From the NCBI GenBank assembly GCA_033720975.1, contig JAWWBL010000002.1, forward strand, positions 1 to 47,514: a stretch of 47,514 nucleotides of DNA, written 5' to 3'. Origin of the DNA: Acidimicrobiia bacterium. Lineage in GTDB: Bacteria > Actinomycetota > Acidimicrobiia > Spongiisociales > ZC4RG35. The translations under genes were made by a program, and so were the position numbers. The notes under the pieces were generated by a model. It searched no databases. It was given only the letters and a program-made list of their open reading frames with translations, and was not told the origin of the DNA. Shown piece by piece: positions 1,632 through 42,675 of this stretch. The stretch's first letter is position 1. The number at the start of each line of letters is the position of its first letter.

Positions 1632-1669
1632 CCTCCCCAGGGGCGTTATCCGGGTCGGGGCTGAAACGC

Positions 1670-3384: not shown

Positions 3385-3429
3385 GAGCCGGGTGAGGGTA
3401 CCTCCACGGCCGCGCCTATCGGCTGTTGC

Positions 3430-3924: not shown

Positions 3925-3978
3925 GGTGGCAAGGGTATGCCGCTGTCTATCTTGTGACTCCCCGATAGAGGGAGACAC

Positions 3979-4698
3979 ATGCCGACACCTCACATATCTT
4001 CAGACAAGGGGGCGTTTGCCCCTTCGATCCTCCTCCCGGGCGACCCGTTGCGGGCGAAGCACATCGCCGAGAATTTTCTCGACGATGTCACCGAGGTGAA
4101 TGCGGTGCGCAACATGCTCGGCTACACCGGGAGCCATCAGGGTGTTCCCATATCGGTGATGGGAACCGGTATGGGCATCCCATCGGCCTCCATTTACGCG
4201 GCCGAGCTCGTGACCGAATACGACGTGGAGAAGTTGATCCGGGTCGGCTCAGCCGGCGGGATTCTCGACTCTGTGAAGATCCGCGATGTGATACTCGCCA
4301 TCGGCGCTTGCACCGACTCGGGCGTGAATCGAGTGAGGTACGGCGGCTTGGACTTCGCAGCTGTGGCCGATTACTGGCTGCTCAAGGCGGCCGAGGAGGC
4401 CGCCACGGCGAGGGGCACCGATGTGACGATCGGCAACGTCCACTCGGCCGACCTGTTCTACACGCCTGATCCAGACGCATTTACACGGATGAGGGACATG
4501 GGGGTGTTGGCAGTCGAGATGGAAGCAGCCGGCCTCTACGGAGTCGCCGCGGAGAAGGGGGTTAGGGCCCTGACCATCTGCACCGTTTCTGATCATGTGT
4601 TCACCGGCGAGTCCACCAGTTCCGACGAACGCGAGCAGACCTTCAACGAGATGGTCGAGATCGCCCTGGCGGCCGTTCTGATCGATTCACAGCGCTGA
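3979..4698 (+). CDS. deoD: Purine nucleoside phosphorylase, DeoD type
   Basis: 239 aa with hexameric PNP signatures: [45 protein letters not shown]. Confidence 0.85.
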
Positions 4699-26476: not shown

Positions 26477-26737
26477 TTGAATGATTTTCCGTTCCTGTTT
26501 CTCACCCGGGCTGGTTGTCATCTGTGTGAGGATGCGTGGCCGGTGGTGAGGGCTGCGGCCAAACGAGCCAGAGTGCGGATAGAAGCAGTCGACATCGAGC
26601 AGCGCGATGACCTGCTCTCGAGGTTCGTTTTGAGGATTCCGGTGGTGCTGGCGCCTACAGGCCGCGTTCTGGCAGAAGGTCGTATCGATGACCGACGGTC
26701 TCTGGCCAGGGCGATGAAGGACTCAAGCCCGGGTTAG
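26477..26737 (+). CDS. Glutaredoxin-like (thioredoxin-fold, DUF836-type) small protein
   Basis: 86 aa, TTG start. LFLTRAGCHLCEDA CxxC motif and later RIPVV, as in glutaredoxin-2-like proteins. The 3' end overlaps the convergent cytochrome c gene by 4 nt. Confidence 0.6.
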   Translation: MNDFPFLFLTRAGCHLCEDAWPVVRAAAKRARVRIEAVDIEQRDDLLSRFVLRIPVVLAPTGRVLAEGRIDDRRSLARAMKDSSPG

Positions 26738-27756
26738 CCGACTGGTGGCGGGGAGACCTTGGCCTCCTCGTCACCTTCGACCGGCATCTCGTCGGTTCCC
26801 CCGTCACCGGCGGTGTCGTCAGCGGGCGCTTCGACCAGGCCGCAGTCGACAACGGCTGTCTCAGGGTCTTCTCCACCGAACCGCACCCGTTCGAATGCTG
26901 CAACAGCGGCTATCTGCTCCTCCGTGAGGCTGGCAGCGAAGGCTGGCATTCCACCCCGGACCGTCTTGTTGGTGTCTCCGTAGGTTCCTCCTGCAAAGCC
27001 TGGAGAACCGAGTGTCACCCATTCGATGTGGTCGGTGCATGCTCCAAACGTGGTCAAGACCCCGGTCAGCGCCGGGAAGTTCCCGGCACCCTGACCGCTA
27101 CCCCCGTGGCAACCCGCGCAGTTGACACCGGCGACGGCTCCGCCTCCATATATCTCCTGACCGAGGGCTATGAAGTCCTGCCCTCCGCCTCCTACCGCCT
27201 GACCGGTGAATGCCGATCCGTCGCAGTTCACGATGTCACCCGTGACCACGTCGGCTCGCAACTCGGTTCCCTCGCCGCACGCTCCGGTGGTCGAGCCGCC
27301 CAAGGCGAACAAGGCGAACAAGGGAGCTATGAACAGGACGGAGGCGAGCCACCGCGGCATGCGGAAGTTGGTGCGCTCTCTGATGCCCGCTGTGGGGACC
27401 GTGATCACGTCCGGGAGGTTGACTGCTTCTGCTGCCGTCACCTCCGGAGGCACCGGGGCCCTTCCCACGGCCGCGGGTGTCGGGTCGGAAACGGCGGGAG
27501 TTGGCGCTGGTGCCGGTGCGGCGGATGGTGTGGGCATCTCCACTGTCTCTTCATGATCCGGTGATTCGGCCTCGGCCGGGGCGGGCTGTACTTGGCTCGC
27601 TGGCGACGGAGTGTCGAGAGGTGCTCCGCCGGCCCAGGCGGAGAGGATGTCCTCGACGCTTGCCCCCGTCTCGGCGGCTCGAGCCTCAGCCGAGCGTTGT
27701 GTGAGCGACTCGGGAATTCCAAGAGCTGCGGCGGCGGCGCTGAGGACATCGCTCAT
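26734..27756 (-). CDS. Membrane-anchored class I monohaem cytochrome c with conserved cytoplasmic N-terminal module
   Basis: From ATG 27756 (MSDVLSAAAAALGIPESL...): Pro/Ala-rich linker, TM helix, CAGCHGG haem motif, GGMPAF Met ligand, acidic tail. Confidence 0.8.
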   Translation of the reverse strand: MSDVLSAAAAALGIPESLTQRSAEARAAETGASVEDILSAWAGGAPLDTPSPASQVQPAPAEAESPDHEETVEMPTPSAAPAPAPTPAVSDPTPAAVGRAPVPPEVTAAEAVNLPDVITVPTAGIRERTNFRMPRWLASVLFIAPLFALFALGGSTTGACGEGTELRADVVTGDIVNCDGSAFTGQAVGGGGQDFIALGQEIYGGGAVAGVNCAGCHGGSGQGAGNFPALTGVLTTFGACTDHIEWVTLGSPGFAGGTYGDTNKTVRGGMPAFAASLTEEQIAAVAAFERVRFGGEDPETAVVDCGLVEAPADDTAGDGGTDEMPVEGDEEAKVSPPPVG

Positions 27757-27757
27757 G

Positions 27758-28507
27758 TCAGTTCCCATCGCTCTGGGATCGTGATAGATACTCGACGAGA
27801 GCCGACAAATCCTGGGGTGACAGAGAATGGGCCGGGTGGGTGCCGAGGCCGCCGACGATCGCCTCCAACTGGCCCGAGGTCAGCCTTGCCCCAACGTTCG
27901 CCAGATCGGGGCCAAACCTTCGTGTGCCCAACACCTGGTTCGAGTCGTTGAGCGTGACGTCTCCCAGGCCCACATCCGCGACGACAGGTCTCACCATCTG
28001 GGTGTGACATGCGGCACATCCAAGGCTCAGGTAGATGTCTCTGCCCTCGAGCGCCGTCTCGGAGTACGAGATCGCGCTCGTCCGGGCGCCTGGCTCGTCA
28101 GCGAGCGATGCCGGCCCGACGAGGCCTATCAAGGCGATGACTGCGAAGAGCCCGATCGCGCCCACCAGCACACCGACCGGATTGTCTTTTACCCCCACAA
28201 GGACAGGCGGCTTGTACCGGCCGACGGGGATCGGTGCCTCAGGCTGGGGGGTGTCCGGGACGGGGATGTCGATCACGGGAGCCGTGGTGACAGGTTCGGG
28301 ATCCGCAGCAGCCTCGTCCTCTTCGGGAGCCGTGGCTGCCGGTGAAGGCTCCTGTGTTGTCGCCGGCGGCGGCGCCCCGCCAGCCCAGGCGGAGAGGATT
28401 TCGTCGAGGCTCGCCCCGGTTTCGGCGGCGCGAGCTTCGGCAGATCGTTGGGTCAAGGACTCTGGTATGCCAAGGGCGGCGGCAGCGGCGCTGACCAGAT
28501 CACTCAT
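27758..28507 (-). CDS. CcoO-like monohaem cytochrome c (cbb3 oxidase subunit II homologue) with the same N-terminal module
   Basis: From ATG 28507 (MSDLVSAAAAALGIPESL...): TM helix, LEGRDIYLSLGCAACHTQMVRP and GTRRFGPDLANVG as in CcoO. Overlaps the upstream gene by 8 nt. Confidence 0.75.
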   Translation of the reverse strand: MSDLVSAAAAALGIPESLTQRSAEARAAETGASLDEILSAWAGGAPPPATTQEPSPAATAPEEDEAAADPEPVTTAPVIDIPVPDTPQPEAPIPVGRYKPPVLVGVKDNPVGVLVGAIGLFAVIALIGLVGPASLADEPGARTSAISYSETALEGRDIYLSLGCAACHTQMVRPVVADVGLGDVTLNDSNQVLGTRRFGPDLANVGARLTSGQLEAIVGGLGTHPAHSLSPQDLSALVEYLSRSQSDGN

Positions 28508-29975
28508 CGTCGACCCCCTTGGAGACGAGCAGTTCCTGTGTCGTGGCCTTCCCGCTGGTGATGGTGCCGAGGACGACGGACGCGTAGGCGAGGTGACCGA
28601 GAAGAGTGACGATTGCAAACAACGCACCGAGAAGCAGAAGGGTGTCCGCGGTAGCGCCCACGCCCGCGCCCCATCCTTCGCCAAAGTCGGCGTAGGCCGC
28701 GGAGTTACTGCCGGCCGTCCACGAATAACCCGTCACCGCACCTGCGGTCGCGAGTGTCACCAAAGTGCCCACAGAACCGACGAGTGTGTACCTGACAAAG
28801 GACCGGACCCGATCACCGGAGTGAATCTCCCGGCCGACAAGCCGAGGAAGAGCCGACAGTGACGTGGCGGCTACGAGCAGGGCCCCAACCCCTGCCATCC
28901 AGGCGATTTCGATTCCCTCCCAGAATGACGTGAGAGCGGTCACAGCCGCTGCGGACCGGAAACCGGCGACAGCTGCAAGGGCCGCAACGATCGCGGCCAA
29001 GTAGAGACCGATGACGCCGGCACGTACCCCGTGGTTAGTCCCAAGATCGCCCCACGACCCCTCGAGGGTCAAAGAGACATTGGCGGCGTTTGCAAGTGCG
29101 GCCACGGGAAGCGCGAGTCCCAGTGCCGCAACGACCCCGGATATCCAATCTGGCCCCGGGCCGAATGTCAGTTGAGCCAGGCCCCACCACACGGAGGCGA
29201 AGCCCAGAGACCAAAGACCGACAAGGGCGAGCTGTCGGCTCGCAAGCGGAGCATCGAGCTCCTTGACCACCGCGTAGTAGAGAAGCCCAGTTCCCAGCGT
29301 GAGCAGCACCATCGTGACCATTCCGCCCGACACGAACATGTCGACGTATGCGACCTGGACCGCCTCGAGAAGGGGCAGATGGCCCACCAGGTTGGCCAGG
29401 AAGAGAAGAGGCATCCAGACCGTCCCGGCGATGACGAACCAGACTGTGACATAGCTGCGTGGCTCAGTCCTGACAGCGATCGTTCGAAGGGCTGTCAGCG
29501 CGGGAATGGACAATGTGCCCAGCATGGGGATGTCGAGCCACCACGGAAGACCAAAGGGCTGCCGGCCGGAGCCAAAGCCAAAACCTATCGCCACGACGCC
29601 GGCCGTCACTATGCCAGCCATGCCCAACAAGCCCAGACGGGCCAGGCCGGTGGAGGAAAGTCGGGCCCCGGTGAGCCGAGGGAGCACGTAGTAGACGCCA
29701 CCGACTAGTGAGATCACACCAAAGCCGATCACCAGGGAGAGGTTGGCCATCGGTTCCACGCGGCCGAAGGAGACGGGGATCAGGTCCCCGAACCTCAGCG
29801 CCACCAGTGACAAAACCGAGAGGAGGCTGCCCAATATGAGAAAGACTGCACCAACCACGAAGTGGCTGACGGCTAACCGATCTTCGCCGGCTCCTCCGCC
29901 GAGCAGCGTTCGGATGTCAGTTGTCTCGGTCTCGGCCAACGGTCTCCCCGCGGATGATGGGACGGCGGGGAGCAT
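28500..29975 (-). CDS. CcoN-fold (haem-copper oxidase subunit I-like) membrane protein lacking the canonical His ligands
   Basis: 491 aa, multi-TM. Segments SFGRVEPMANLSLVIGFG, GLLYYAVVKE and FGPGPDW parallel CcoN signatures, but only 5 His are present and none is in an HH or HxH arrangement. Confidence 0.65.
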   Translation of the reverse strand: MLPAVPSSAGRPLAETETTDIRTLLGGGAGEDRLAVSHFVVGAVFLILGSLLSVLSLVALRFGDLIPVSFGRVEPMANLSLVIGFGVISLVGGVYYVLPRLTGARLSSTGLARLGLLGMAGIVTAGVVAIGFGFGSGRQPFGLPWWLDIPMLGTLSIPALTALRTIAVRTEPRSYVTVWFVIAGTVWMPLLFLANLVGHLPLLEAVQVAYVDMFVSGGMVTMVLLTLGTGLLYYAVVKELDAPLASRQLALVGLWSLGFASVWWGLAQLTFGPGPDWISGVVAALGLALPVAALANAANVSLTLEGSWGDLGTNHGVRAGVIGLYLAAIVAALAAVAGFRSAAAVTALTSFWEGIEIAWMAGVGALLVAATSLSALPRLVGREIHSGDRVRSFVRYTLVGSVGTLVTLATAGAVTGYSWTAGSNSAAYADFGEGWGAGVGATADTLLLLGALFAIVTLLGHLAYASVVLGTITSGKATTQELLVSKGVDDE

Positions 29976-30110
29976 AACTTGTCGGTGGATCGAACCTCAT
30001 TACGACCAGACCGCAAGCGCATCCGGGCAGCGACGGGTTGCCGCCGCGAGTCGTTCGTGTGGTAGAAACGCTCCTACAAGCAAACCGACCCGGGCCACTA
30101 CCAAGGAAAC

Positions 30111-30740
30111 ATGTACCGCCTCGCGGAACTCACCGACAGCCGACGAAAGCTCATTGGTGCGACCCTGCTCGTTTTGGGGCTCGTTGGGCTGGCTCTTGCA
30201 GTGTTTTGGATCCATTGGTCTTCGTACCCCGAGACAGAGCTCGTTGACGGGGTAGCGGTGCCGTACGTGGTGGATCACTTCAACTGGTTCCCTCGCGGAG
30301 CTTTGTGGAAGGGGATCGGCTACTTGATCGCGGGTGGCGCCGCGACCTTCGCAATGATCGGAGCTGCATTCCTATGGGTCCTGAATCAGAAGATGACATG
30401 GGCCCGCGCCACGATCGCCGCGATGATCGCCTGGTTTGCTCTCGTTTTCTTCTTTGGCATTGTCCCGTCAGAATGGCTCAACTTCGCACAGACGGACCTC
30501 GAATGGGGCAACGATCCGGCCATCACGATTCCTCCGTTCCTCGTGCTTGGCAACGAAGTCTCCCTCAGTTGGGCGGCGATCAAGGACTCGATCTCGATGG
30601 GATATCACCTGGTCATGCTCGGAGTGGCAGGGGCCCTCGCCATCGGGATCCAGAAGATGAAGGACGGACGGCCTGCCCACAAACAGCCTGACGCGCTCAC
30701 TTCTCCCTACGGCAGGCCTTTGGTGAAGGGCGAGCGCTGA
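30111..30740 (+). CDS. Multi-pass membrane protein, first gene of the Rieske/cytochrome b operon
   Basis: 209 aa, AAGGAA upstream of the ATG, 4-5 hydrophobic segments. Its stop overlaps the start of the ferredoxin-type gene. Confidence 0.6.
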   Translation: MYRLAELTDSRRKLIGATLLVLGLVGLALAVFWIHWSSYPETELVDGVAVPYVVDHFNWFPRGALWKGIGYLIAGGAATFAMIGAAFLWVLNQKMTWARATIAAMIAWFALVFFFGIVPSEWLNFAQTDLEWGNDPAITIPPFLVLGNEVSLSWAAIKDSISMGYHLVMLGVAGALAIGIQKMKDGRPAHKQPDALTSPYGRPLVKGER

Positions 30741-31189
30741 TGCCTAAGGGAGTCGTCGATGAGACGCCGCCGATCCGCGATGACTATCAGCTCGCCCTCG
30801 TGGAGGGTGACTACTTCAAGGACAAGCTCAGGCCAAAGCAGTTCCTCCACATCGACCAATCGGAGTGCATCCTTTGCGAAGGGTGTGTGGACATTTGTCC
30901 TTGGAAGTGCATTCACTACCTGTCGCTTGACGCCATAGACGAAGCAGTCAACGTCGACCATCCGGCCGAGGACGGTCAGAACCTCGGGTTCTTCATCGTT
31001 GACGAAGACGAGTGCACACGCTGTGCGCTCTGCATCGACCGGTGCCCGACCAATGTCATCACGCTGGGCAAGTTCGAGGGCTCTCTCGCGGATCAAGCCG
31101 GACAATTGGGTCTTGACCGCCGGCCGTGGGACTTCGACACAGGACAGCGTGACTTCAAGAACGGTTACTCGTACGGTATGCGGTGGTAG
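30740..31189 (+). CDS. 2x[4Fe-4S] ferredoxin-type protein
   Basis: 149 aa with two CxxCxxCxxxCP motifs (CILCEGCVDICP, CTRCALCIDRCP) and no TM segment. Confidence 0.8.
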   Translation: MPKGVVDETPPIRDDYQLALVEGDYFKDKLRPKQFLHIDQSECILCEGCVDICPWKCIHYLSLDAIDEAVNVDHPAEDGQNLGFFIVDEDECTRCALCIDRCPTNVITLGKFEGSLADQAGQLGLDRRPWDFDTGQRDFKNGYSYGMRW

Positions 31190-31201
31190 GGCGAGGTAGG
31201 A

Positions 31202-31990
31202 ATGGCTAACGGAAACGACAAGACCTCTCTCCGCGAGAGGATCGGCGAGAAGGTCGGAGAGACGACCGAGAAATTGTGGAAGTCTCAACTCGCCGAAGCG
31301 ATTCTGCGTCCCGGCTCACCGTTCAAGCAGGGCTATTCGGACAGCCCGCGCAACCGCTCATATGTCGTCATGAACAACGTGCTCTATCACCTCCACCCGG
31401 TCAAGGTGAAGCGTCACGGCGTCAAGCTCTCCTACACCCTCTGCCTCGGCGGGCTGAGTTTCTTCTTGTTCATCCTCTTGACGATCACGGGCATCTTCCT
31501 GATGTTCTATTACACACCTACCGCCGAGTTGGCCTATGCCGACATCGAACGGCTCTCGACGGATGTTGCCTTCGGGTCGCTGGTCAGGAACCTCCACCGC
31601 TGGGGCGCCCATCTCATGGTCCTGTCGGTCTTCCTGCACATGAGCCGGGTCTTCTACCACGGCGCCTACAAACCACCTCGAGAGTTCAACTGGGTCATTG
31701 GCGTGATCCTTCTCTTCCTCACGCTGCTGCTGTCATTCTCGGGCTACCTACTCCCCTGGGACCAGCTGGCCTTGTGGGCCGTGACAGTCGGAACCAACAT
31801 GGCCGGGTTCGTCCCTGTCGTCGGGTCCCAGGTGAAGTTCTGGTTCCTGGCAGGCGTGGAGGTGAGCGGCGCGACGCTGCTTCGCTTCTATGTGCTCCAC
31901 GTTCTCGCGTTCCCCTTCATCATCGTGATATTCATGGCAGTCCACTTCTGGCGTGTCCGCAAGGACGGCGGGATATCCGGGCCTCTTTAA
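31202..31990 (+). CDS. Cytochrome b6-type protein (N-terminal four-helix half of cytochrome b)
   Basis: 262 aa. Haem ligand pairs in [11 protein letters not shown] and VLHV...[17 protein letters not shown] (LPWGQ-like), and TLCLGG matching the YCLGG haem-ci Cys context. Confidence 0.85.
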
Positions 31991-32000
31991 GGAACATCGA

Positions 32001-32951
32001 ATGGTTGAGATTCCAGAAGACCTGTTGAGGAGATCGGCCGAGGCCAAGGCCAAGGCCCTTGGCGTCCCGGTTGAAGACGTCTTGGCCGAGATGAAAGGGG
32101 AGGGCCCGCCGGTCGAGGTCCCACAACCCGAGCCGGTTGCAAAGCCGGCGGCCGGTGAGTCGACGGACGAAGAGATGCCGGTCGAAGAGGCCGGGACGGT
32201 CTCGTCACTTGAAGAGCCGGAGTCAAAGGGCGCCGGCTCCGAGCCTGACATGACCCCTGAGCCTGCTGATCCTGGGGATGTCGAAGCCTCCGAGACGGAG
32301 CCCGCATCCTCTGTAGCGACGATGGAGGCCCCGCCCCCGGCCGGCGACGGCAATGGCTCTGGAAACGGCAAGGTGGCGACTTCGGTCACGCCGCGACCGA
32401 CCGCCAGCCCCGCAGGCCTGCCCGAAGGGGTCAGGACCCAGCGGCTGCTGACCGTCGTCAAAGCTCGGGCGATTCAGGACGTCAAGACCGAGCCGCAGGA
32501 CAAGGTCAACACTTGGCCTCACCTGATGCTGATGGAGTTCGGCGCGCTGCTTCTCATAACGGGGCTCTTGATCATCATGTCGGTCGTCATCCACTCGCCC
32601 CTCCTCGACCCGGCCAATGTCAACGCGACCCCGAACCCGTCCAAAGCGCCCTGGTACTTCCTGGGGCTCCAGGAGCTTCTGTCGTACTTCGATCCGCAGA
32701 TCGCGGGGGTGACGATCCCGACCATCACTGGGATGATCGGCTTCATGATGGTCCCCTTCGTCGACAAGAACCCGTCCAACCGCCCATCGGATCGGAAATT
32801 CGCCATCGTGTTGTACACGATCTTCCTGGCCGGCTCGGCGACGCTCACGATCTTCGGGGTTTTGTTCCGGGGCAAGGGTTTCAACTTCTCTTATCCGTGG
32901 AAGGACGGGATCTTCTTCGATGACTTGAAAGACTGGGTGCACTTCGAGTGA
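32001..32951 (+). CDS. Subunit IV-type protein (C-terminal half of cytochrome b) with N-terminal module and acidic linker
   Basis: From ATG 32001 (MVEIPEDLLRRSAEAKAKALGVPVEDVLAEM...): about 150-aa acidic/Pro-rich linker, then three TM helices with SKAPWYFLGLQELL (PEWY-type motif). Confidence 0.8.
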   Translation: MVEIPEDLLRRSAEAKAKALGVPVEDVLAEMKGEGPPVEVPQPEPVAKPAAGESTDEEMPVEEAGTVSSLEEPESKGAGSEPDMTPEPADPGDVEASETEPASSVATMEAPPPAGDGNGSGNGKVATSVTPRPTASPAGLPEGVRTQRLLTVVKARAIQDVKTEPQDKVNTWPHLMLMEFGALLLITGLLIIMSVVIHSPLLDPANVNATPNPSKAPWYFLGLQELLSYFDPQIAGVTIPTITGMIGFMMVPFVDKNPSNRPSDRKFAIVLYTIFLAGSATLTIFGVLFRGKGFNFSYPWKDGIFFDDLKDWVHFE

Positions 32952-33826
32952 CGTTCACAAACACGATCCTGATCGCCGTCGCCCTTTTTGCCATCCTCGC
33001 CGCGGCTGGTGCCTTCACGATTGCCTTCCGCCGCGCCAGGAGCGAGCGGCCCTCCGATCCGACCGACGGGGTTTCTGCCGAGACCATTAAGGCAGACCGG
33101 TCGATGGAGGGGGTCGAGGTCGTCGCCGTGGAGCCCGAGCCCGAGGCTGACGTCGTCCAGTCGGTCGAGGAGGGCGACGAGGAGCCGCAGCTGGAGCCGG
33201 CGGGCGTCGGCGTTGCCGTCATCGAGGAACAGCGGATTGTCGAAGTGACCCCTGAAGAGGGCGGCGTGACCCGCAGACAGTTCTTCAACAGGGCGATCAC
33301 CGCAACTTTCGGATCGTTCATGGGGCTGATGGGCCTGTATTCACTCGTCTTCACCTGGCCGAAGCTCTCGGGCGGGTTCGGGACTGACGTCGACGCAGGT
33401 GAGCTCGGCGAGGTTCAGGGCTCGGTGTTCGCTGCCGACGGGTCGATCCTGCCGCTGTTCGTCCCGGAGGCGAGGGCATACGTGGTTCCCTCCCCGACGA
33501 ACCTCTCGAAGCAGTTCGAGGGTCGGAGGGTGGAGGCCGGAGGGCTCATGGCGCTGTTCCAAAGATGCGTTCACCTGGGTTGCCGTGTCCCGTGGTGCGG
33601 GCCGTCCCAGGGATTCGAATGCCCGTGCCACGGTTCGAAGTACAACTCGATTGGCGAGTACTTCGCCGGGCCCGCTCCCAGAAACCTCGACCGTTTCGAG
33701 GTCGAAGTCGTCGGTGGCCGATTCATCATCAAGACCGGCTCGATCGTCGAGACTCCGCGGGCTTCGGCGCTCTCATCGGCGTATCCGAGGGGGCCGAGTT
33801 GTATTGGCGCGACCGCTGAGGCTTAG
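32948..33826 (+). CDS. Rieske [2Fe-2S] protein
   Basis: 292 aa, GTG start overlapping the previous stop. CVHLGC and CPCHGS cluster motifs, plus an internal twin-arginine motif TRRQFFNRAI after an N-terminal TM helix and acidic linker. Confidence 0.85.
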   Translation: MTFTNTILIAVALFAILAAAGAFTIAFRRARSERPSDPTDGVSAETIKADRSMEGVEVVAVEPEPEADVVQSVEEGDEEPQLEPAGVGVAVIEEQRIVEVTPEEGGVTRRQFFNRAITATFGSFMGLMGLYSLVFTWPKLSGGFGTDVDAGELGEVQGSVFAADGSILPLFVPEARAYVVPSPTNLSKQFEGRRVEAGGLMALFQRCVHLGCRVPWCGPSQGFECPCHGSKYNSIGEYFAGPAPRNLDRFEVEVVGGRFIIKTGSIVETPRASALSSAYPRGPSCIGATAEA

Positions 33827-33829
33827 AGC

Positions 33830-35518
33830 GTGACCTCGAACATCATCACAGTTCTGGCCATCGTCGCCGGGATCACCTGGCTTGGGGTTCTCCTGGTGGC
33901 GGCGATCCGGAACCGCGGGAGCGAAGAGGTCCCTTCCAACATTCGCCCAGGTATCGATGACCAGCAGCTTGAGACACGGCGCCTGGAGTCCGGCCAGAAG
34001 GCGGCCATCGCCGCGTCGGCTTTCCTGGCCGTCTCTCTCCCTCTCTATTTCCTCAGCGAGCCGAGCCGGCAAGAAGGGTTTGTCGAGGAGTTTGCACATG
34101 CCTCTGAGGAGCGCGGAGAGCATCTGGTCGAGGAGTTCGCCTGCTTCTCGTGCCACGGCCCTCTCGGAGCTGGCGGCTCTGCCTCGTTCGTCGAGAAGCG
34201 GTCCGGTGTCACCGTGTCCTGGGAGGCGCCCGCTCTCAACGACGTCCTCTACCGATACGACGAGGACGAGCTCAACTTCTGGATCACCTTCGGCCGTGGG
34301 AACACCCCCATGCCCGCTTGGGGGCTCGCCGGCGGTGGCCCCCTCAATGAGGCTCAGGTCGTTGACATCGTCAACTACCTGAAGACGATCCAGATCCCGC
34401 AACAGGAAGCTGCCGCCAAGGCAGCCTCCCAGGTCGATATTCAGATCTCGCGCTTGAACAACGCCGAAGCGACGGTCGAAGAGGCGATCCTCAACCAGCG
34501 CCAGGTTCTCGCCGAGATAGCCCAGGCGCCGGCCGACGCACTGTTCGTTGGGCCCCTGGCTGTTCGCGCCCGGGATCTTCTCGACGCTGCCGCCACCGGA
34601 ATCGACACCGACGACGACGGCCTCTCGGATGCGGTCGAGGCCGAGCTGTCGTTGATATCCGCTGAGGCCTATGACTACTTCCAGGGGATCGAGCCGGTCA
34701 CCCTCGATCCCGAGATTGCCGACAACGACCTGCTCGTATCGGCAATGGCACAGCTCGAGGAGGGGGCGGATCAGGACCCGATCTTGGGTCAGTACCTAGC
34801 TGCCGTCGAAGCCATTCTCGAAGGCCAGGACCTGACGAGCGATAGCGATGGTGACGGGATCTCCGATGAGGCAGAGGCGGCCATTTCGGGCCAGTTGGCC
34901 GAGGCTTCCCGTGCGACGATCCCGGCCGGGATAGCGGTGGTGAGTCTGAGCCCGACCAGCACGGAGTCAGTGCCCGACGTGTCCGACAGGGCCACTGCCA
35001 CCCGTCTCGTCGGCGGGCTCGAGTCAGTTGCCATAAACACATCCGTTGCCGCGGAGAACTTCGACAAGCTCTTCAACCAAGAATCTGCCGGGCTCACTTT
35101 CCTGCTCGACGCCCAGCGGGCCAGGGCGTGGCATGTCGACATCGCAGGGGTGGCTGATTCGATGGGAGTCGGTGAGGAGGAGGCCGAGAGGGCAGTGGCG
35201 CTCTTCAACGCAAACTGCGCCCGCTGCCACACGGCCGGTTTCAGCGCAGGCGTGCCTTACACCCAGGAGATCGGATCGGGTGGGTTCGGCCCGGCGCTGT
35301 GGGATGGCCGGCCCGTCGTCCAGTTCGGGGAAGCCGCCGATCCCGAGGAGGACCTCCTCATCCAATTCCTGATAAGAGGCTCGGAGGCACAGAAGCCTTA
35401 CGGCCTCAATGGGTTCGGCTCGGGGCGGATGCCCGCATTCGGGGCGGTCCTTTCCCAGGAGGACATCGCGCTGCTTGCCCTGTACCTTCGTAGTGGCAAC
35501 TTGAGCGGAGTTGAGTAG
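33830..35518 (+). CDS. Membrane-anchored dihaem cytochrome c with large inter-domain insertion
   Basis: 562 aa, GTG start, N-terminal TM. CFSCH (aa 105-109) with TPMPAW, and CARCH (aa 463-467) with GRMPAF. About 260 aa separate the two haem domains. Confidence 0.8.
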   Translation: MTSNIITVLAIVAGITWLGVLLVAAIRNRGSEEVPSNIRPGIDDQQLETRRLESGQKAAIAASAFLAVSLPLYFLSEPSRQEGFVEEFAHASEERGEHLVEEFACFSCHGPLGAGGSASFVEKRSGVTVSWEAPALNDVLYRYDEDELNFWITFGRGNTPMPAWGLAGGGPLNEAQVVDIVNYLKTIQIPQQEAAAKAASQVDIQISRLNNAEATVEEAILNQRQVLAEIAQAPADALFVGPLAVRARDLLDAAATGIDTDDDGLSDAVEAELSLISAEAYDYFQGIEPVTLDPEIADNDLLVSAMAQLEEGADQDPILGQYLAAVEAILEGQDLTSDSDGDGISDEAEAAISGQLAEASRATIPAGIAVVSLSPTSTESVPDVSDRATATRLVGGLESVAINTSVAAENFDKLFNQESAGLTFLLDAQRARAWHVDIAGVADSMGVGEEEAERAVALFNANCARCHTAGFSAGVPYTQEIGSGGFGPALWDGRPVVQFGEAADPEEDLLIQFLIRGSEAQKPYGLNGFGSGRMPAFGAVLSQEDIALLALYLRSGNLSGVE

Positions 35519-35520
35519 GG

Positions 35521-35877
35521 ATGTTCAGAGAGTTCTTCAGATCGCTGCTCTCAGCGAACCTGTTCGTCACCGGTATCGTGCTGACGCTCGCCGCCGTGCT
35601 TCTGTTCTACGGATCGATCTACCTGTTCAACCACACGAATCTGGGCCGTCGACTGGCCCTCCTGGTCACCGGCGCCTCCATCTTCGGGTGGATGACCATC
35701 ACATCGCTGCTGTTCGTCATCTACGCGCCCCGTGGCCCGAAGCCCGACAACATCGAAGGTCTCAACGCCTTCGAAATCCGCGTGATCCCGTTGACCTTCC
35801 TCCTGGTCTCTTTGGTCCTCTTTCTCGTTTTCGTCGTCGCACTCCACCAATACGAGTCGACGCGAGAACCCGACTAG
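35521..35877 (+). CDS. Small three-TM membrane protein, last gene of the Rieske/cytochrome b operon
   Basis: 118-aa ORF starting 2 nt after the cytochrome c stop, with three hydrophobic segments. Confidence 0.55.
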   Translation: MFREFFRSLLSANLFVTGIVLTLAAVLLFYGSIYLFNHTNLGRRLALLVTGASIFGWMTITSLLFVIYAPRGPKPDNIEGLNAFEIRVIPLTFLLVSLVLFLVFVVALHQYESTREPD

Positions 35878-35887: not shown

Positions 35888-38800
35888 TCAGGTCCTGGCG
35901 CGCAGGTCGAGGACCCGCCGACGCATCTCACAATCTCCCAGTACGTGGATCTGTTCGAGCACCGAGTCGAGGATCTCTCGCGCTTCGTCGGTCTCGCCGC
36001 CGTGAATCAACACCTTGGCCAGCTCGACTTTGCCAGGGATCACGGCACCGTTGAAGTTGTGTTTGGTGGCTCTGTCGATGATTGCCCGTAGTGCGTTGTC
36101 CGGGTCCCGGCGCGCCTTGAGCACGTAGGGCAGAAATCGCGGGTTGGAAGCCAGGTCCTTAAGGCTTGCGTTCGCCTCCCCGGTGGCGATTCGGCCCAGC
36201 ACGCCTGCGTAATTGAGCTCGGCGTACAACATCTCCCAGAGTCGCCCATTGCGTTCTGCCATCTCTCGCGTCGCGACGATCCGGTCCATTCCCTCGCTGA
36301 GGTTGCCTTCAAGGAGGTCCGTCATTCCTCGAGCGACCGACAGAACCAGCGGCGTGGGCAACTCGGTGCCGGTCTGCTCTGCATCCATCAAGAATGAGAC
36401 CGCTTCGGACGCTGCATCGAGGTGTCCACCCAAAGTGGCCGCCGCGGCAGCGTTGATGATGGCAGTGTCCCGATAGATGGGGTCCTTGGCGATAGAGCTG
36501 CTCCGTCTGCCCATCTCAATCGCCTCTTCGTAGTTGCCGTATACCGCCGCGATGAATGCCAGGCCCTGGTAGCCGAAAGCAACGCACCGGTTGTTTCCCT
36601 CAGCCTCACCGAATGCGATGACCTCTCGGCACAACTCAGCGGTTTCTTCCGGCATGCCCGCCGAGGCCAGTGCAAATACGAGAGTGATCGTCGACTTGAA
36701 GTAGGGATATGGATCAATCGCCCGGTTGGCCCGAGCCCATGCCTGAATCGACCGTCCAGTTTCGATCGCGCCCAAAGGATCTCCCGTGACGAATCGGGCC
36801 CATGTCAGCCACGTCCGGGCATACGCAAGACCGGTCTCGTCGCCTGTCCTCTCGGCTATCGCTTCCGCCTCGTCCAGGAAACCGGTGTTATTCGTCTGGT
36901 CTATCCGGAACCCCGCAGCATGTCCGCGCCACACGAGCCACCACATGCGGAGCCTTTCGTCCTCGAGCCGGTCGACGATTTGCTGATGTTCCACGAGGAT
37001 GTCATCTAGGCGAAGCAGATGGGCCCGGTAATAGAAGACGATGGCCCAGTCGAGTATGAGCTCGATCAGTTGGCGGTCGCGATCAGTGGTCGACTCCGCT
37101 TCGGTCAGCATCTGGTAGCCGTTGTCGAAGTGGGCCTCGGCTTCGACTAGCGCGTACCGGTCCATTGCCTTCCGACCGGCGGCCCGCAGGTAGTGCACAG
37201 CCTTGTCCAGAACCTGCCCTTGGCGGTAGTGGTAGGCGAGAGTCTCTGTGACTTCTTCGAGCCTCTCGGCAAACTGAACTTCGATCGCCCGGGCAGCCCG
37301 CGCGTGTAGTGAGACCCGTTCGGCTTTGAGCAGCCCCTCATAGGCCACGTCCTGAGTCAGGGCATGTTTGAAGAAGTACTCCAGGTCGGCGTCGTGTCTC
37401 CGCTCCCGGATCAGATCGGCCACCTCCAGGTCGGCGAGGCTGGGATCGAGAACCTCGGTCCGCGTGGCGACGCGCTTGATCACGTCGTAGAGAAACTCTC
37501 TACCGACCACAGACGCCTCTCTGAGTATTTGGCGACGGTCGGTATCGAGCCGGTCGATCCGCGCTGCGATCACGCCGCGAATCGAAGTGGGAAGGTCTGC
37601 TTCGGTGAGCGACCCTGTCACACGCCATCCGTCGCCTTCTCGCTGAACAGTCCCTGTTTCGATGAGCGAGTTGACGATCTCCTCGACGTAGAAGGGGTTT
37701 CCGTCGGTCCGTTCCACGATGAATTCGAGGAGCTCGGGCGGGGGGTCGTTCACCCCGAGCAGAGAGGCGACCATTTCCCCGGTCTGCCGCGGGGAGAGAG
37801 GGGCCAGCTCGATCTCCCTGAGCAAGGGGAGTCGGTTTGTGAACGACGGGCGGTAGTTGGCGATGATCACCACCGGGGCGCTCAGAGCCTCGAGGAGGTC
37901 CCGGACGATCGCCACGGTCGAGGGGTCGGCCCAGTGGAGGTCCTGGAGCACTAGCACCGTTGGCGCCCTCCGGCACAACCCACCTACCACCGCAAGGAGG
38001 CTTTCGAGTAGTCGATCCTGGAAAGAGTCTTTCTCGAGGGCTGCGTCGGGCCGCTCAGGCAGTCCGTATAGCCTGACGAACGGGTCCAGAACCCTGTCAA
38101 CGTCTTCGACCAGGACCCCGATTTCGGAGCGGAGCTTGCTCGAGATCGAGCTCTGGGTATCGCGTTCGCCTACACCGATCGCGTTTGAGATGAGATCGAC
38201 CAGAGCCGCATACGGGATGTTCTCACCGTATGGGTAGGCGCGACCCTCCAGCCATTGCACGTTTCCTTCGACGCGGGACTGGAACTCGGCGAGCAAACGG
38301 GTCTTGCCCGCCCCGGCCTCGGCCCTGATCCCAATGACGCTTCCTTTGCCGTCCCGGACGTTCTCGACGGCGCCAAGAAGAATCCCGAGTTCCTCATGGC
38401 GGCCGACGAATCCGGCTTGTCGCCTGGAAGGGGTGGCGCGAGTCTCGAGTGGCCCCACGACCTTTTTCACCAGGGTTGGGCCCGCCTTGCCCCTCAGCGC
38501 GTGCTCTCCATGGTCCTCCAGCTCGAAAACCCCGCCAACCGCCGCCGCAGTCTCCGGGCCGATCAGGATCTCACCCGCCTTCGACAGGTCCTCCAACCTC
38601 GCTGCAACATTGATCGTGTCGCCGAGAGGGCCGGTGTCGGCCGCGTCGAGTGCTCCCGCGCTTGTGATCACCACCCCGGTGTTGATCCCTGAATGCATCT
38701 CGAGCGGCCGCCCGATGTCCTTTTCGTAGCGAGGGCTGATCTCGTCCACCAGCGCGTGGATCTCGAGCGTGGCACGAACCGCCCTTTCAGCATCGTCCTC

Positions 38801-39118
38801 GTGGGCTACCGGGTCCCCAAAGACCGACATGACTGCGTCCCCGAGGAGCTTGTCCACCCTTCCCCCGAAGCGTTCGATGACTTCGGTCGCTTTGGAGAAG
38901 ATCTCCCTCATGACACCACGGAGGTCTTCTGGATCCATGTGCTCCGACAGGGCCGTGAACCCGGAGAGATCCGAGAAGGCGACAGTTATCTGCTTCCGCT
39001 CACCCTGCGGCGCGAATGCCCGCAGGTCCGAGCCGCACTGACTGCAAAAGCGTGCCTCATCCGGGTTGTCAAAGCTGCAGTTGTCGCACTTCGCCAAATC
39101 AACCTCTCCGAGCACCAT
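35888..39118 (-). CDS. Zinc-ribbon / class III adenylate-guanylate cyclase / AAA(STAND) ATPase / TPR multidomain protein
   Basis: 1076 aa. CDNCSFDN...FCSQCG zinc ribbon; cyclase motifs FSDLSGFT, LLGDAVM, GDTINVAARLE; P-loop AEAGAGKT; helical-repeat C-terminus with no HTH recognised. Confidence 0.8.
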   Translation of the reverse strand: MVLGEVDLAKCDNCSFDNPDEARFCSQCGSDLRAFAPQGERKQITVAFSDLSGFTALSEHMDPEDLRGVMREIFSKATEVIERFGGRVDKLLGDAVMSVFGDPVAHEDDAERAVRATLEIHALVDEISPRYEKDIGRPLEMHSGINTGVVITSAGALDAADTGPLGDTINVAARLEDLSKAGEILIGPETAAAVGGVFELEDHGEHALRGKAGPTLVKKVVGPLETRATPSRRQAGFVGRHEELGILLGAVENVRDGKGSVIGIRAEAGAGKTRLLAEFQSRVEGNVQWLEGRAYPYGENIPYAALVDLISNAIGVGERDTQSSISSKLRSEIGVLVEDVDRVLDPFVRLYGLPERPDAALEKDSFQDRLLESLLAVVGGLCRRAPTVLVLQDLHWADPSTVAIVRDLLEALSAPVVIIANYRPSFTNRLPLLREIELAPLSPRQTGEMVASLLGVNDPPPELLEFIVERTDGNPFYVEEIVNSLIETGTVQREGDGWRVTGSLTEADLPTSIRGVIAARIDRLDTDRRQILREASVVGREFLYDVIKRVATRTEVLDPSLADLEVADLIRERRHDADLEYFFKHALTQDVAYEGLLKAERVSLHARAARAIEVQFAERLEEVTETLAYHYRQGQVLDKAVHYLRAAGRKAMDRYALVEAEAHFDNGYQMLTEAESTTDRDRQLIELILDWAIVFYYRAHLLRLDDILVEHQQIVDRLEDERLRMWWLVWRGHAAGFRIDQTNNTGFLDEAEAIAERTGDETGLAYARTWLTWARFVTGDPLGAIETGRSIQAWARANRAIDPYPYFKSTITLVFALASAGMPEETAELCREVIAFGEAEGNNRCVAFGYQGLAFIAAVYGNYEEAIEMGRRSSSIAKDPIYRDTAIINAAAAATLGGHLDAASEAVSFLMDAEQTGTELPTPLVLSVARGMTDLLEGNLSEGMDRIVATREMAERNGRLWEMLYAELNYAGVLGRIATGEANASLKDLASNPRFLPYVLKARRDPDNALRAIIDRATKHNFNGAVIPGKVELAKVLIHGGETDEAREILDSVLEQIHVLGDCEMRRRVLDLRART

Positions 39119-39505: not shown

Positions 39506-40114
39506 CTATCCGTAATAGCTGAGGATCTGAAGCTCGGTTGAGAGGTCGACCTGCCGCACTGCGACCCCGTCGGGCACGGTGACGCGAGCAGGCGCGAAAT
39601 TGAGAATCGAAGCGATGCCGGCCGATATCAGCGACTCGGTGACGGACTGCGCGGCCGTGGCCGGCACGGCCAGGATGGCCATGTCGAACCGATGCTTCCC
39701 CGCATCGGAAGTCATGGCACTCACATCTGAGACCCTCACACTTCCGACGGTTTCTCCGATCCGGTCCGGGTCGATGTCATACAGGGCGACGACGTCGAAG
39801 CCTCTCTTGGCCAGCCCCGAGTAGCGGGCGAGCGCGGTTCCGAGGTTGCCGGCGCCGACGATCGCCACCCTCCTTCGATGTTCGATCCCGAGCTCGCGCC
39901 GTATCCGGTCCCGCAGCGCCGGCACCGAGTAACCCACACCGCGGGTTCCCTGGAACCCCAGGTCGGACAGGTCTCGCCGTACGTTGGCCGCGTTCACGCC
40001 TGCTGAGTCGGCTAGAGCATCAGACGAAACCGTTTCGCTTTGCCCCTCGACCTCTTCGAGCAGTCGCAGGTATCGAGGCAAGCGTGAAACCGTGGCTCGT
40101 GACAGGTCGCTCAT
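39506..40114 (-). CDS. rex: Redox-sensing transcriptional repressor Rex
   Basis: 202 aa. N-terminal winged helix TVSRLPRYLRLL, GFQGTRGVGY, Rossmann VAIVGAGNLG, C-terminal LNFAP. Confidence 0.9.
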   Translation of the reverse strand: MSDLSRATVSRLPRYLRLLEEVEGQSETVSSDALADSAGVNAANVRRDLSDLGFQGTRGVGYSVPALRDRIRRELGIEHRRRVAIVGAGNLGTALARYSGLAKRGFDVVALYDIDPDRIGETVGSVRVSDVSAMTSDAGKHRFDMAILAVPATAAQSVTESLISAGIASILNFAPARVTVPDGVAVRQVDLSTELQILSYYG

Positions 40115-40131
40115 TGTGAAATACTGTACAA
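40114..40131. promoter_or_regulatory. Rex operator (ROP)-like site at the rex start
   Basis: TTGTGAAATACTGTACAA vs ROP consensus TTGTGAAnnnnTTCACAA (2 mismatches in the right half). It abuts the rex ATG in the divergent rex / geranylgeranyl reductase region. Confidence 0.5.
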
Positions 40132-40174: not shown

Positions 40175-41407
40175 ATGACCTCTCCTTCAGTCCTCATCGT
40201 CGGGGGCGGGCCCGCCGGCTCCGCCGCCGCCTACTGGCTGGCCAGGGCCGGCCACGACGTCACGCTTGTCGAGAAGAAGGAGTATCCCCGCGAGAAGACA
40301 TGTGGCGACGGGCTCACCCCACGCGCGATCCTCCAGCTGCAGGAGATGGGGTTCGATTTCGAAGTCGCCGAGTTTCACCGCATCACGGGCCTCCGCTCCT
40401 ACGCGGGCGACGACTTGATGATCGAGATGCCTTGGCCCGAGCACAGCAAGTTTCCCAACTGGGGAGGTGTCATCCGCCGCAGTGACCTCGATGCTCAGGT
40501 CGCCAGGCTTGCAGAAAAGGAAGGGGCGACGATCAGGGAGAAGACCAGCGCTATTCCCGTGATCGAAGGCGGGGAACTGAAGGCGGTCGAACTGGAGAGC
40601 GCTGGTGAGTCTGAGGTCGTGAAACCCCTCTACACCGTTGTTGCCGATGGCTCGATGAACCGGTTCGGGCGTGCCTTGGGAACTGAGCGTCGGAGGGATT
40701 ACCCGCTCGGAATGGCAGCTCGCGGGTATTGGACCTCGCCGCGTTCGGACGACAGGTTTCTCGAGAGCCAGTTGGACATGCGCGACTCGTCGGGGGCGAC
40801 GATGCCTGGTTACGGGTGGGTGTTCCCCCTTGGCGACGGGACCGTAAACGTCGGCGTCGGCCTTCTCTCCACCTTCAAGCGCTGGAAACAGGTGAACACG
40901 TCGACCATGCTCGACGACTACGTCGCTCGCGCTCCTGATTATTGGCAGCTGTCCGGTCCCACGGGCAAGCCGATGGGTGGCAAGCTTGCAATGTCGTTCT
41001 CCAAGACCCCCCTAATGGGCTCTAATTGGCTCACCATTGGTGATGCGGCCGGAGCGATCAACCCGTGGAACGGGGAGGGGATCTCCTACGCCTACGAGAC
41101 TGGCCGCATCGCAGCCGAACACATCGGCGATGCTCTGGCGACGAGCGATCCGACCGTGCTCGGGCGCTACCAGCAACGGCTCGACGAGGAGTACGGCCTC
41201 TATTACAAGATGGCCAGGATCTTTGTCAGGCTGATTGGCAACCCGACCGTGATGCGAACTCTGGCCCACACCGGACTGCGGAACCGGACTCTCATGGAGT
41301 GGACGCTCAAGGTCATGGCCAATCTCTTGGATGAGGACGACAAGGAGATGGGAGAGAGGGTTTACTCCGCACTTGCCGCCATCGTCCGTCGACTTCCCAC
41401 GTCGTGA
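40175..41407 (+). CDS. Geranylgeranyl reductase family FAD-dependent oxidoreductase (MenJ-like)
   Basis: 410 aa; VLIVGGGPAGSAAAYWLA dinucleotide fold and KTCGDGLTP motif. Confidence 0.8.
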   Translation: MTSPSVLIVGGGPAGSAAAYWLARAGHDVTLVEKKEYPREKTCGDGLTPRAILQLQEMGFDFEVAEFHRITGLRSYAGDDLMIEMPWPEHSKFPNWGGVIRRSDLDAQVARLAEKEGATIREKTSAIPVIEGGELKAVELESAGESEVVKPLYTVVADGSMNRFGRALGTERRRDYPLGMAARGYWTSPRSDDRFLESQLDMRDSSGATMPGYGWVFPLGDGTVNVGVGLLSTFKRWKQVNTSTMLDDYVARAPDYWQLSGPTGKPMGGKLAMSFSKTPLMGSNWLTIGDAAGAINPWNGEGISYAYETGRIAAEHIGDALATSDPTVLGRYQQRLDEEYGLYYKMARIFVRLIGNPTVMRTLAHTGLRNRTLMEWTLKVMANLLDEDDKEMGERVYSALAAIVRRLPTS

Positions 41408-42657: not shown

Positions 42658-42675
42658 TTGCGAATTAGTTCACAA
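42658..42675. promoter_or_regulatory. Rex operator (ROP) upstream of nuoA
   Basis: TTGCGAATTAGTTCACAA, one mismatch to TTGTGAAnnnnTTCACAA, ending 27 nt upstream of the nuoA GTG. An extra TTGCGAA half-site lies at 42639-42645. Confidence 0.6.

Follow-up and report, generated by a model that had tools for sequence, protein, structure and literature searches.

A respiratory island of Acidimicrobiia in which a split Rieske/cytochrome b operon faces a ligand-free homologue of cbb3 oxidase subunit I

What use can a respiratory chain make of an oxidase subunit from which every metal ligand has gone? This question is raised by a stretch of 47,514 nucleotides (hereafter, the window) from an Acidimicrobiia bacterium (contig JAWWBL010000002.1 of assembly GCA_033720975.1), which carries at 26734-35877 a respiratory island of ten genes arranged in two divergent operons. 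One of them encodes a Rieske/cytochrome b core together with a ferredoxin-type subunit, and the other starts with a homologue of CcoN, the subunit I of the cbb3-type oxidases, where the six histidines and the tyrosine of the active enzyme are all replaced. As described below, this protein is kept under purifying selection with the predicted fold of its catalytic relatives, and the two operons are inherited together, in an arrangement that is far beyond chance and is found again wherever a related locus has sufficient flanking sequence. The whole picture towards which we lean, with little more than even confidence and on the basis of sequences and structural models, is that of an extended complex III, where the ligand-free CcoN would scaffold a relay of c-type haems, the ferredoxin would serve as an electron wire on the cytoplasmic (n) side of the membrane, and short N-terminal modules shared by several subunits would act as tethers.

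The gene set, the strands and the divergent layout had been described in an initial annotation of this DNA, and all ten open reading frames (ORFs), with the domains claimed for them, are indeed found in the ORF list and in profile searches with Pfam and NCBIfam. The plus-strand operon runs from a 209-aa protein with four transmembrane (TM) helices (TM209, 30111-30740) through a 149-aa 2x[4Fe-4S] ferredoxin-type subunit with two CxxCxxCxxxCP motifs (30740-31189), the four-helix, cytochrome b6-type N-terminal half of a split cytochrome b (31202-31990; Pfam Cytochrome_B, 169 bits), its subunit IV-type (SUIV) C-terminal half with three TM helices (32001-32951; Cytochrom_B_C), a Rieske [2Fe-2S] protein (32948-33826; Pfam Rieske) and a 562-aa membrane-anchored dihaem cytochrome c with two CxxCH motifs (33830-35518), up to a final 118-aa protein with three TM helices (TM118, 35521-35877). 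On the minus strand lie the genes for the CcoN-like protein (28500-29939; COX1, 65.7 bits), a CcoO/FixO-like monohaem cytochrome c (27758-28507; FixO, 45 bits for a cut-off of 29.6) and a class I monohaem cytochrome c (26734-27768; matches to Cytochrom_C and Cytochrome_CBB3). The plus-operon genes are as tightly packed as had been stated, with overlaps of 1 nt (TM209/ferredoxin) and 4 nt, and gaps of 12, 3 and 2 nt. The spacer of 135 bp given between the operons stands if the upstream ATG of the CcoN-like gene at 29975 is used (491 aa); homologues and gene calls prefer the start at 29939, which gives a protein of 479 aa and would widen the divergent intergenic region to 171 bp (29940-30110). 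The most likely start of SUIV is the ATG at 32001, not the GTG at 31953, and the CcoO-like gene starts at the ATG at 28507, not at the TTG at 28684, overlapping the stop of the CcoN-like gene by 8 nt.

The CcoN-like protein aligns with the CcoN chains of cbb3 oxidases over about 390 residues in a phmmer search against the PDB, and scores 99 bits with the ccoN model TIGR00780, far under its cut-off of 583. At the positions of the six histidines, taken from the reference chain 9g6b_A, it carries A77, G217, A267, Q268, I355 and I357, and at that of the cross-linked tyrosine S261 (numbering of the 491-aa form). The expression “ligand-free oxidase homologue” used in the initial annotation was thus exact. 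In a MAFFT alignment of its 120 best homologues (59-83% identity, nearly all of them from metagenome-assembled genomes (MAGs) of Acidimicrobiia), none of the 120 has histidine in the metal-ligand columns, and the cross-linked tyrosine is replaced in all of them as well. The position of the haem b ligand H347 is occupied by Tyr in 112 of these homologues and by Ile in the protein of the window, that of the ligand H60 by Ala, Ser or Thr, and the CuB positions by Ala/Ser/Gly, Ala and Gln. The same alignment contains 119 columns with at least 97% conservation, and the invariant polar residues are H38, R61, R100, E171, E239, Q268, N296, Q480 and E481. With the six histidines and the tyrosine lost, neither haem b, haem b3 nor CuB could be bound, and no reduction of O2 would be possible.

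The AlphaFold2 model of this protein (predicted local distance difference test (pLDDT) 81.6, predicted template modelling score (pTM) 0.87) shows 12 long helices, and its closest structures in Foldseek are the CcoN subunits of cbb3 oxidases (TM-score 0.83-0.85 to 3mk7, 9g6b, 6xkw, 8smr and 9g83), followed by A- and B-family oxidases and NorB (0.69-0.75). Taken together, the alignment and the model show a protein that keeps the predicted fold of cbb3 subunit I without being able to bind haem b, haem b3 or CuB. The ratio of non-synonymous to synonymous substitution rates (dN/dS), calculated with the Nei-Gojobori method for four orthologues, is 0.11-0.20, with a similar range for the Rieske protein and the dihaem cytochrome c; synonymous sites are saturated, so that these values are to be read as upper-bound-like estimates. 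An intact reading frame, a kept fold and purifying selection speak against the term “degenerate”, if this is taken to mean a gene in decay. The family is also a sizeable one, with 380 to 621 homologues depending on the search, the upper figure coming from an exhaustive HMMER search against 1.84 billion representative sequences. Of 100 full-length representatives, clustered at 50%, about 75 are ligand-free, and they rank above the canonical CcoN proteins with the complete “HHYHHHH” set; a profile search with distant ligand-free members recovered 14 proteins. Across the wider ligand-free clade the residues at the ligand positions vary freely. The common database name for these homologues is “cbb3-type cytochrome c oxidase subunit I”, and our full-text literature searching found neither an earlier account of ligand-free CcoN homologues nor an earlier example of a dead heme-copper oxidase subunit I kept as a structural subunit.

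If the protein is no longer an oxidase, its genomic company becomes the main clue to its role. The initial annotation had itself proposed the co-conservation of both operons as a test, and they stay together in close and distant relatives alike. A scan of one genome per GTDB species gave 14 close loci, and tblastn with the ten window proteins shows the full divergent layout in all 12 of those that have upstream sequence, as far as the contigs reach; the remaining two end 205 bp upstream of the CcoN-like gene. Identities among these loci are 81-93% for cytochrome b and 54-72% for the CcoN-like protein. At distant loci (L015, L017/L018 and L022-L025), where the CcoN-like protein is only 26-36% identical, the island layout is found again: a TM protein of about 200 aa, ferredoxin, cytochrome b, SUIV, Rieske, dihaem cytochrome c and a small TM protein, facing the CcoN-like gene and a cytochrome c. 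The wider neighbourhood is usually kept there as well, including Rex, a MenJ-like reductase, nuo genes, SAM_HAT and CLP1_P. The two operons are therefore inherited together, and the island is kept across Acidimicrobiia at every related locus with enough flank. Three loci with the island (L011, L013 and L014; CAWBJJ010000002.1, CAWACX010000002.1 and CAVVMG010000001.1) are titled “uncultured Acidobacteriota bacterium”; their cytochrome b is 85-86% and their ferredoxin 91% identical to those of the window, and the label is probably wrong.

The distant relatives also reveal a second kind of association. In L017, L018 and L023-L025 the ligand-free CcoN is fused to a CcoO domain that keeps its CxxCH motif, and in two further proteins (P0168 and P0179) to a cupredoxin domain with the type-1 copper motif CDVHPNM. 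The gene for P0168 (5020-7104 of L019) lies between a TM98-ferredoxin-cytochrome b operon, resABC and a genuine caa3 COX2/COX1 pair. The linkage of the ligand-free CcoN to a periplasmic one-electron carrier, either covalent or genetic, is thus recurrent. In a crude neighbour-joining tree, the island-associated proteins form one large ligand-free clade, and a second, small ligand-free group falls among the canonical CcoN proteins. The latter includes L020, where a ligand-free CcoN-FixO-cytochrome c trio (1398-4266) has no Rieske/cytochrome b neighbour. Since this lineage is nested among canonical proteins, its loss of ligands was probably independent, which suggests at least two independent losses. 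As a putative context of another complex III, L020 gained no support, the 317-aa and 124-aa proteins encoded upstream matching nothing in Pfam or NCBIfam; an outer-membrane efflux protein is encoded on the same contig. Only one canonical ccoNOQP locus, L021, was retrieved.

The complex that the CcoN-like gene faces seems, by motif and hydropathy scans for cofactor sites and topology, to be fully equipped. Its cytochrome b has the four histidines expected for the haems bL and bH in two pairs, HRWGAH...FLH (14 apart) and HVLAF...AVH (15 apart), with a b6-like spacing as read from the sequence, and a CxGG motif (LCLGG, at C81) that predicts a haem ci site. SUIV starts with a cytoplasmic module followed by an acidic linker and its three TM helices, and carries the Qo motif APWY (KAPWYF) at residue 216. 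The Rieske protein consists of an N-terminal TM helix, an acidic linker, a twin-arginine translocation (Tat) motif TRRQFF at residue 109, a second TM helix and the two cluster-binding boxes, CVHLGC at residue 207 and CPCHGSKY at residue 225. In the dihaem cytochrome c, which matches Cytochrome_CBB3, Cytochrom_C and TSP3_bac in Pfam, two N-terminal TM helices precede the haem motifs CFSCH (residue 105) and CARCH (residue 463), and a long Asp-rich linker separates both haem domains. This linker holds repeats such as DTDDDGLSD and DSDGDGISD, like the TSP3 calcium-binding repeats (34560-34900, residues ~245-355). Every cofactor motif of the Rieske/cytochrome b core is thus intact at the sequence level, and what it catalyses is almost certainly quinol:cytochrome c oxidoreduction.

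A split cytochrome b had been regarded in the initial annotation as an un-actinobacterial trait. We know from Kao & Hunte 2014 (PMC4122944) that split cytochromes b occur in deep-branching Actinobacteria, namely in Rubrobacteridae and in Ilumatobacter coccineum, a member of the Acidimicrobiia, so the apparent conflict with the host disappears. The same work defined the APWY clade, with its CxGG motif, which spans Deltaproteobacteria, Chloroflexi, Nitrospirales, Planctomycetes, Actinobacteria and Symbiobacterium, counts no characterised member and was proposed to operate in reverse (PMC4122944). The island has the separate b6 and SUIV genes, the APWY and the CxGG of this clade, and the APWY-clade split cytochrome b is the normal complex III for Acidimicrobiia. 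Membership in the clade also explains why the cytochrome b barely passes the NCBIfam model ExtP (298 bits for a cut-off of 290); SUIV, besides Cytochrom_B_C, gives weak matches to cytb6f_IV and to ExtQ (52 bits for a cut-off of 150).

The ferredoxin-type subunit is the best-conserved protein of the island, with identities of 88-94% in close loci and 72-73% in distant ones and a dN/dS of 0.03-0.04. Its cluster motifs start at residues 43 and 92, several Fer4 families are matched, and its closest relatives in the PDB are FwdF, polyferredoxin, RnfB and NuoI. It has no TM helix and no signal peptide, which places it in the cytoplasm, on the n side. The n-side stretch of cytochrome b (RNRSYV[VI]...LCLGG, residues ~47-85, 31340-31460) is 87-100% identical in all loci, and stays constant even where the identity of the CcoN-like protein is about 30%. 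Judged by this conservation, the n-side face of cytochrome b would be a natural candidate to form an interface with the ferredoxin. The stretch contains three histidines, which recall the extra interfacial haem b predicted with AlphaFold3 in anammox complexes. No flavin or NAD(P) domain was found with Pfam and NCBIfam in the ten island genes, and our literature searching returned no description of a ferredoxin subunit as part of such a complex.

The small membrane proteins that open and close the plus operon are more elusive. TM209 has no match in Pfam, NCBIfam (E up to 1) or the sequences of the PDB, and its AlphaFold2 model (pLDDT 72) finds no PDB fold with Foldseek. Each of its 908 homologues carries the name “hypothetical protein”, and it is present in every locus with enough flank at 34-85% identity, with a 98-aa version of its C-terminal part in L019. 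TM118, likewise without Pfam or NCBIfam matches (E up to 1), is found in all loci with enough flank at 44-80% identity.

On the minus strand, the two cytochromes c share a common plan. The CcoO-like protein starts with a cytoplasmic module, from which a linker rich in Pro and Ala leads to a single TM helix and then to a haem domain in the periplasm (CAACH, residue 164); the class I cytochrome c has the same N-terminal module, a linker and one TM helix, with its haem motif CAGCH at residue 217. This third subunit is monohaem, unlike the dihaem CcoP of cbb3 oxidases. The module, of about 35 aa, is found at the start of SUIV (32001-32120, plus strand), the CcoO-like protein (28364-28507, minus strand) and the class I cytochrome c (27613-27768, minus strand), in each case before a Pro/Ala/Glu-rich linker and the first TM helix; an example is IPESLTQRSAEARAAETGASVEDILSAWAGG, and its consensus reads IPExLxxRSAEARAxxxGxSV[DE][DE][IV]LxxWxGG. 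The first 46 aa of the class I cytochrome c are 89% identical to their counterpart in the CcoO-like protein. The module is present at every related locus, on subunits of both operons, and occurs in tandem repeats in the SUIV of L023 (3-4 copies) and in a cytochrome c of L025 (3 copies). It matches nothing in Pfam, was not found described in the literature, and may resemble a helix-extended-helix motif. Because it is carried by products of both operons, it links them independently of their synteny.

How does this island compare with the respiratory complexes already described? The initial annotation knew of no complex of this gene set, and full-text literature searching likewise found no description of one with this ten-gene composition. 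No earlier description seems to exist for the family of ligand-free CcoN proteins, for the way it is strictly paired with the complex, for the ferredoxin and TM209 as a pair, or for the module that several subunits share. The closest published frame is the APWY clade, with which the island shares the split cytochrome b and SUIV, the APWY and CxGG motifs, the Rieske partner and the ExtP model; the description of this clade, known from sequence alone, includes no ferredoxin, TM209, ligand-free CcoN or N-terminal modules. One of its members is the ExtOPQ of Geobacter. The Geobacter Ext clusters encode multihaem cytochromes (ExtKL/M/N/S) and a porin, ExtI (PMC5877670), neither of which appears in the ORF list or in the profile searches of the window, and ExtM is a 12-haem cytochrome, not a ferredoxin (PMC5877670). 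From the full ExtHIJKLMNOPQS set, the model of ExtP was passed and that of ExtQ, as given above, was not.

With the cbb3 oxidases (CcoNOP) the minus operon shares the 12-helix CcoN fold, a CcoO-type gene directly downstream and a further anchored cytochrome c. The genuine enzymes have in addition the six histidines and the tyrosine, a dihaem CcoP and the accessory genes ccoQ/ccoGHIS, and the island lacks all of these: FixQ, FixG, FixH, FixI and FixS were found near none of the island loci, whereas the canonical locus L021 has them all. In the solved bc1-cbb3 supercomplexes (6xkw, 8smr and 9g83) it is a real cbb3 oxidase that docks on bc1, and these structures make it plausible, in structural terms, that a Rieske/cytochrome b dimer should have a partner of CcoN shape. 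A parallel for an enzyme fold kept under selection in a respiratory complex is provided by Core 1 and Core 2 of the mitochondrial bc1, which are dead paralogues of the MPP peptidases kept as structural subunits, although fold and origin are different.

Within the same phylum, the QcrCAB-CtaCDEF supercomplexes (CIII2CIV2) of Mycobacterium and Corynebacterium resemble the island in that menaquinol is the likely substrate, that a dihaem cytochrome c is bound to the membrane and that nothing points to a soluble carrier, the actinobacterial complex being obligate, with a hard-wired haem c relay. Their QcrB, however, is a single unsplit protein from a different clade of cytochromes b, and they contain no haem ci, ferredoxin or CcoN-like protein; the Qcr models gave only 112 bits for a cut-off of 500 (QcrB), 19 for 275 (QcrA) and 17 for 200 (QcrC). 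A different resemblance is that to the pair of anammox complexes of Kuenenia (PMC12954380), the nearest precedent for an n-side iron-sulfur (FeS) subunit, which share a b6-type core with haem cN and for which an FeS protein on that side has been proposed to draw electrons from the n-side haems. There, FeS/FAD NAD(P) oxidoreductase subunits are combined with hexa- and octahaem cytochromes, whereas the island has a 149-aa ferredoxin holding Fer4 domains only, its four-helix partner and mono- and dihaem cytochromes. The path predicted with AlphaFold3 in Kuenenia leads from haem bN/cN through a predicted interfacial haem b to the [4Fe-4S] clusters, the predicted ligand of this haem being an N-terminal His of each cytochrome b (PMC12954380).

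From these observations, a working model can be proposed, where the island would encode the menaquinol:cytochrome c oxidoreductase of Acidimicrobiia in an extended form. The ligand-free CcoN would be a membrane scaffold holding the CcoO-like protein and the second anchored cytochrome c, as real CcoN does in cbb3, and would dock both cytochromes onto the Rieske/cytochrome b dimer; this role is suggested by its fusions to carriers (CcoO, cupredoxin) in distant lineages. Electrons could then flow from menaquinol to the Rieske protein, the dihaem cytochrome c, the CcoO-like and class I cytochromes c and, finally, a terminal oxidase whose genes lie elsewhere, in all likelihood the A-type cox/cta enzyme that is usual in Acidimicrobiia. 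Neither COX1 nor COX2 was found in the window or in the ±10 kb around the islands, no A-type oxidase, cytochrome bd or qcrCAB was found in the window or in the flanks of the loci (±10 kb), and the presence and expression of coxAB, with cox-type enzymes as terminal oxidases, have been reported for Acidimicrobiia (PMC11697166, PMC12008989), which is why the oxidase is placed outside the island. The ferredoxin, held by TM209, would sit on the n-side face of cytochrome b and wire haem bH/ci to a cytoplasmic partner, as may be expected from its cytoplasmic location, from the fact that both are the two most conserved parts of the island, and from the FeS precedent of the anammox complexes (PMC12954380). 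The N-terminal modules could be cytoplasmic tethers that join both sub-complexes or recruit a soluble partner.

That the ten proteins would form one physical complex is argued from synteny, gene fusions and the shared module, and the coupling of the operons in particular from the synteny at all loci with flank together with that module. Several points weigh against this model. Synteny and a shared module are not proof of a single complex. A 12-helix protein is a costly anchor, and its invariant polar residues could serve some other role, such as a proton path. Reverse operation has been proposed for APWY-clade complexes (PMC4122944), and L020 shows that a distinct lineage of ligand-free CcoN has no Rieske/cytochrome b genes beside it.

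Other explanations have to be weighed on the same evidence. The operons might encode two independent, co-regulated machines: a self-contained complex III and a separate membrane cytochrome c module, either an electron entry or exit for periplasmic enzymes or an assembly/stability factor, both under a shared divergent promoter with redox-dependent co-expression. Divergent operons are often co-regulated, and the L020 trio exists without Rieske/cytochrome b genes nearby; we nevertheless judge this explanation improbable, given that the pairing is kept at every Acidimicrobiia-type locus examined, down to 26% CcoN identity, that the same N-terminal module is found on SUIV and on the minus-operon cytochromes, and that L020 belongs, in the crude tree, to a different ligand-free lineage whose loss was probably independent. 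A decaying pseudogene of a cbb3 operon, sporadic and specific to this strain, which the initial annotation had left as an alternative, has in its favour the loss of all ligands and nothing else. The intact frame, hundreds of homologues (the closest 120 all ligand-free), the kept fold (pTM 0.87), the low dN/dS and the class-wide synteny lead us to reject it, at a probability close to nil. Scarcely more credible is a CcoN-like protein that would still work as an enzyme or transporter, through unconventional ligands (the invariant H38 and Q268, and the Tyr that most homologues have at position 357) or as an ion channel along the old proton pathway. The 119 near-invariant positions, buried polar residues among them, and the frequent Tyr at the H347 position could be understood in this way, but the protein of the window has Ile there, the H60 and CuB positions are filled as described above, the ligand positions vary freely in the wider clade, and no haem or copper insertion genes are found near the islands.

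A more radical proposal concerns the chemistry of the core. In a bifurcating complex, the low-potential electron would leave through haem bH/ci to the ferredoxin, without Qi recycling, to make a low-potential reductant, and the c-haem relay on the ligand-free CcoN would take the high-potential branch; in a reverse-running one, ferredoxin-level electrons would enter at haem ci, in a ferredoxin:menaquinone route. The APWY Qo motif, the proposals of a reverse mode or unusual energetics for this uncharacterised clade (PMC4122944), the n-side FeS chains of the anammox complexes proposed to bifurcate (PMC12954380), and the extreme conservation of the ferredoxin and of the n-side face of cytochrome b with its three histidines could all be accommodated. 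Yet a flavin or NAD(P) module is missing from the island, the Ser and Tyr of the Rieske box CPCHGSKY go with a higher potential and forward quinol oxidation (according to the rule in PMC12954380), and the adjoining complex I genes suggest an ordinary aerobic chain, so that we consider this possibility unlikely. The boldest version, about which we are just as doubtful, would be a haem-ci Rieske/b6 dimer permanently wired to a bound 2x[4Fe-4S] ferredoxin and locked into a supercomplex by a dead cbb3 oxidase as platform of its cytochrome c relay, which would exchange quinone-pool electrons with low-potential carriers, by bifurcation or by ferredoxin input at haem ci, perhaps with an extra n-side haem on the invariant YHLHP His.

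Next to the island lie the genes for the redox-sensing repressor Rex (39506-40114, minus strand; NCBIfam Rex, 263 bits), a conserved island neighbour, and for a MenJ-like menaquinone reductase (40175-41407; MenJ, 306 bits, below the cut-off, with the GG-reductase subfamily model passed), and from ~43031 a nuo operon in which nuoB, nuoC, nuoD and nuoE were identified; L015, L017 and L022-L025 have these neighbours too. The only good boxes resembling the Rex operator TGTGAAnnnnTTCACA are palindromes at 40115-40130 (2 mismatches), preceding rex/menJ-like, and at 42659-42674 (1 mismatch), preceding nuo. Rex control of the divergent promoter was considered and discarded, as no Rex box occurs in 29940-30110 at up to 3 mismatches and the window-wide count of boxes is under chance. 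A promoter scan found no sigma-70-like site in the spacer, and the terminator-like matches are all inside genes, at chance level.

Between TM118 and Rex, the window has a gene for a 1076-aa protein (35888-39118, minus strand) in which zinc-ribbon, adenylate/guanylate cyclase, AAA_16 and TPR domains are combined. In L015, L017, L022 and L023 nothing separates Rex from the small TM gene, and in L024 and L025 a single small gene lies in between, so the 1076-aa gene looks like an insertion specific to the lineage of the window. Farther away, the stretch 8011-9408 (minus strand) encodes a multicopper oxidase of two domains, extended at its N-terminus by a further domain of the cupredoxin/sulfocyanin-like kind. 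This protein was examined as NirK and rejected (71 bits for a cut-off of 296), the cut-off of CopA being missed as well, and it could be a periplasmic electron acceptor. An NrdJ-type ribonucleotide reductase is encoded at 9541-12906 (minus strand), and lactate-utilisation genes of the LutA-like (CCG domains) and LutB-like (LUD and 4Fe-4S) types lie upstream, at 14591-16713 (plus strand).

A first consequence of these results regards annotation. The CcoN-like family is probably wrongly annotated as an oxygen reductase, and is likely a cytochrome c scaffold. Oxidases of the cbb3 type have been reported in MAGs of Actinobacteriota (PMC8357290), and wherever such calls rest on the ligand-free family, the inference of high-affinity microaerobic respiration would be wrong, in a class that is globally abundant in soil, marine and freshwater environments and acid mine drainage. 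As for the evolution of the heme-copper oxidases, we found no earlier report of a catalytic subunit without cofactors that is nonetheless under selection. This would be a case of an enzyme turned scaffold, and one that has diversified, with fusions to cytochrome c or blue-copper carriers. The ferredoxin next to a haem-ci-type cytochrome b may in turn offer a tractable bacterial system to study the exchange of electrons between n-side FeS clusters and haem ci/bH, a matter relevant to the debates on a ferredoxin-dependent route in b6f and on bifurcation in the anammox complexes. A likely experimental entry point is a cultured relative with a split cytochrome b, such as Ilumatobacter coccineus. 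With this island, the APWY clade gains a representative that is class-wide and probably housekeeping.

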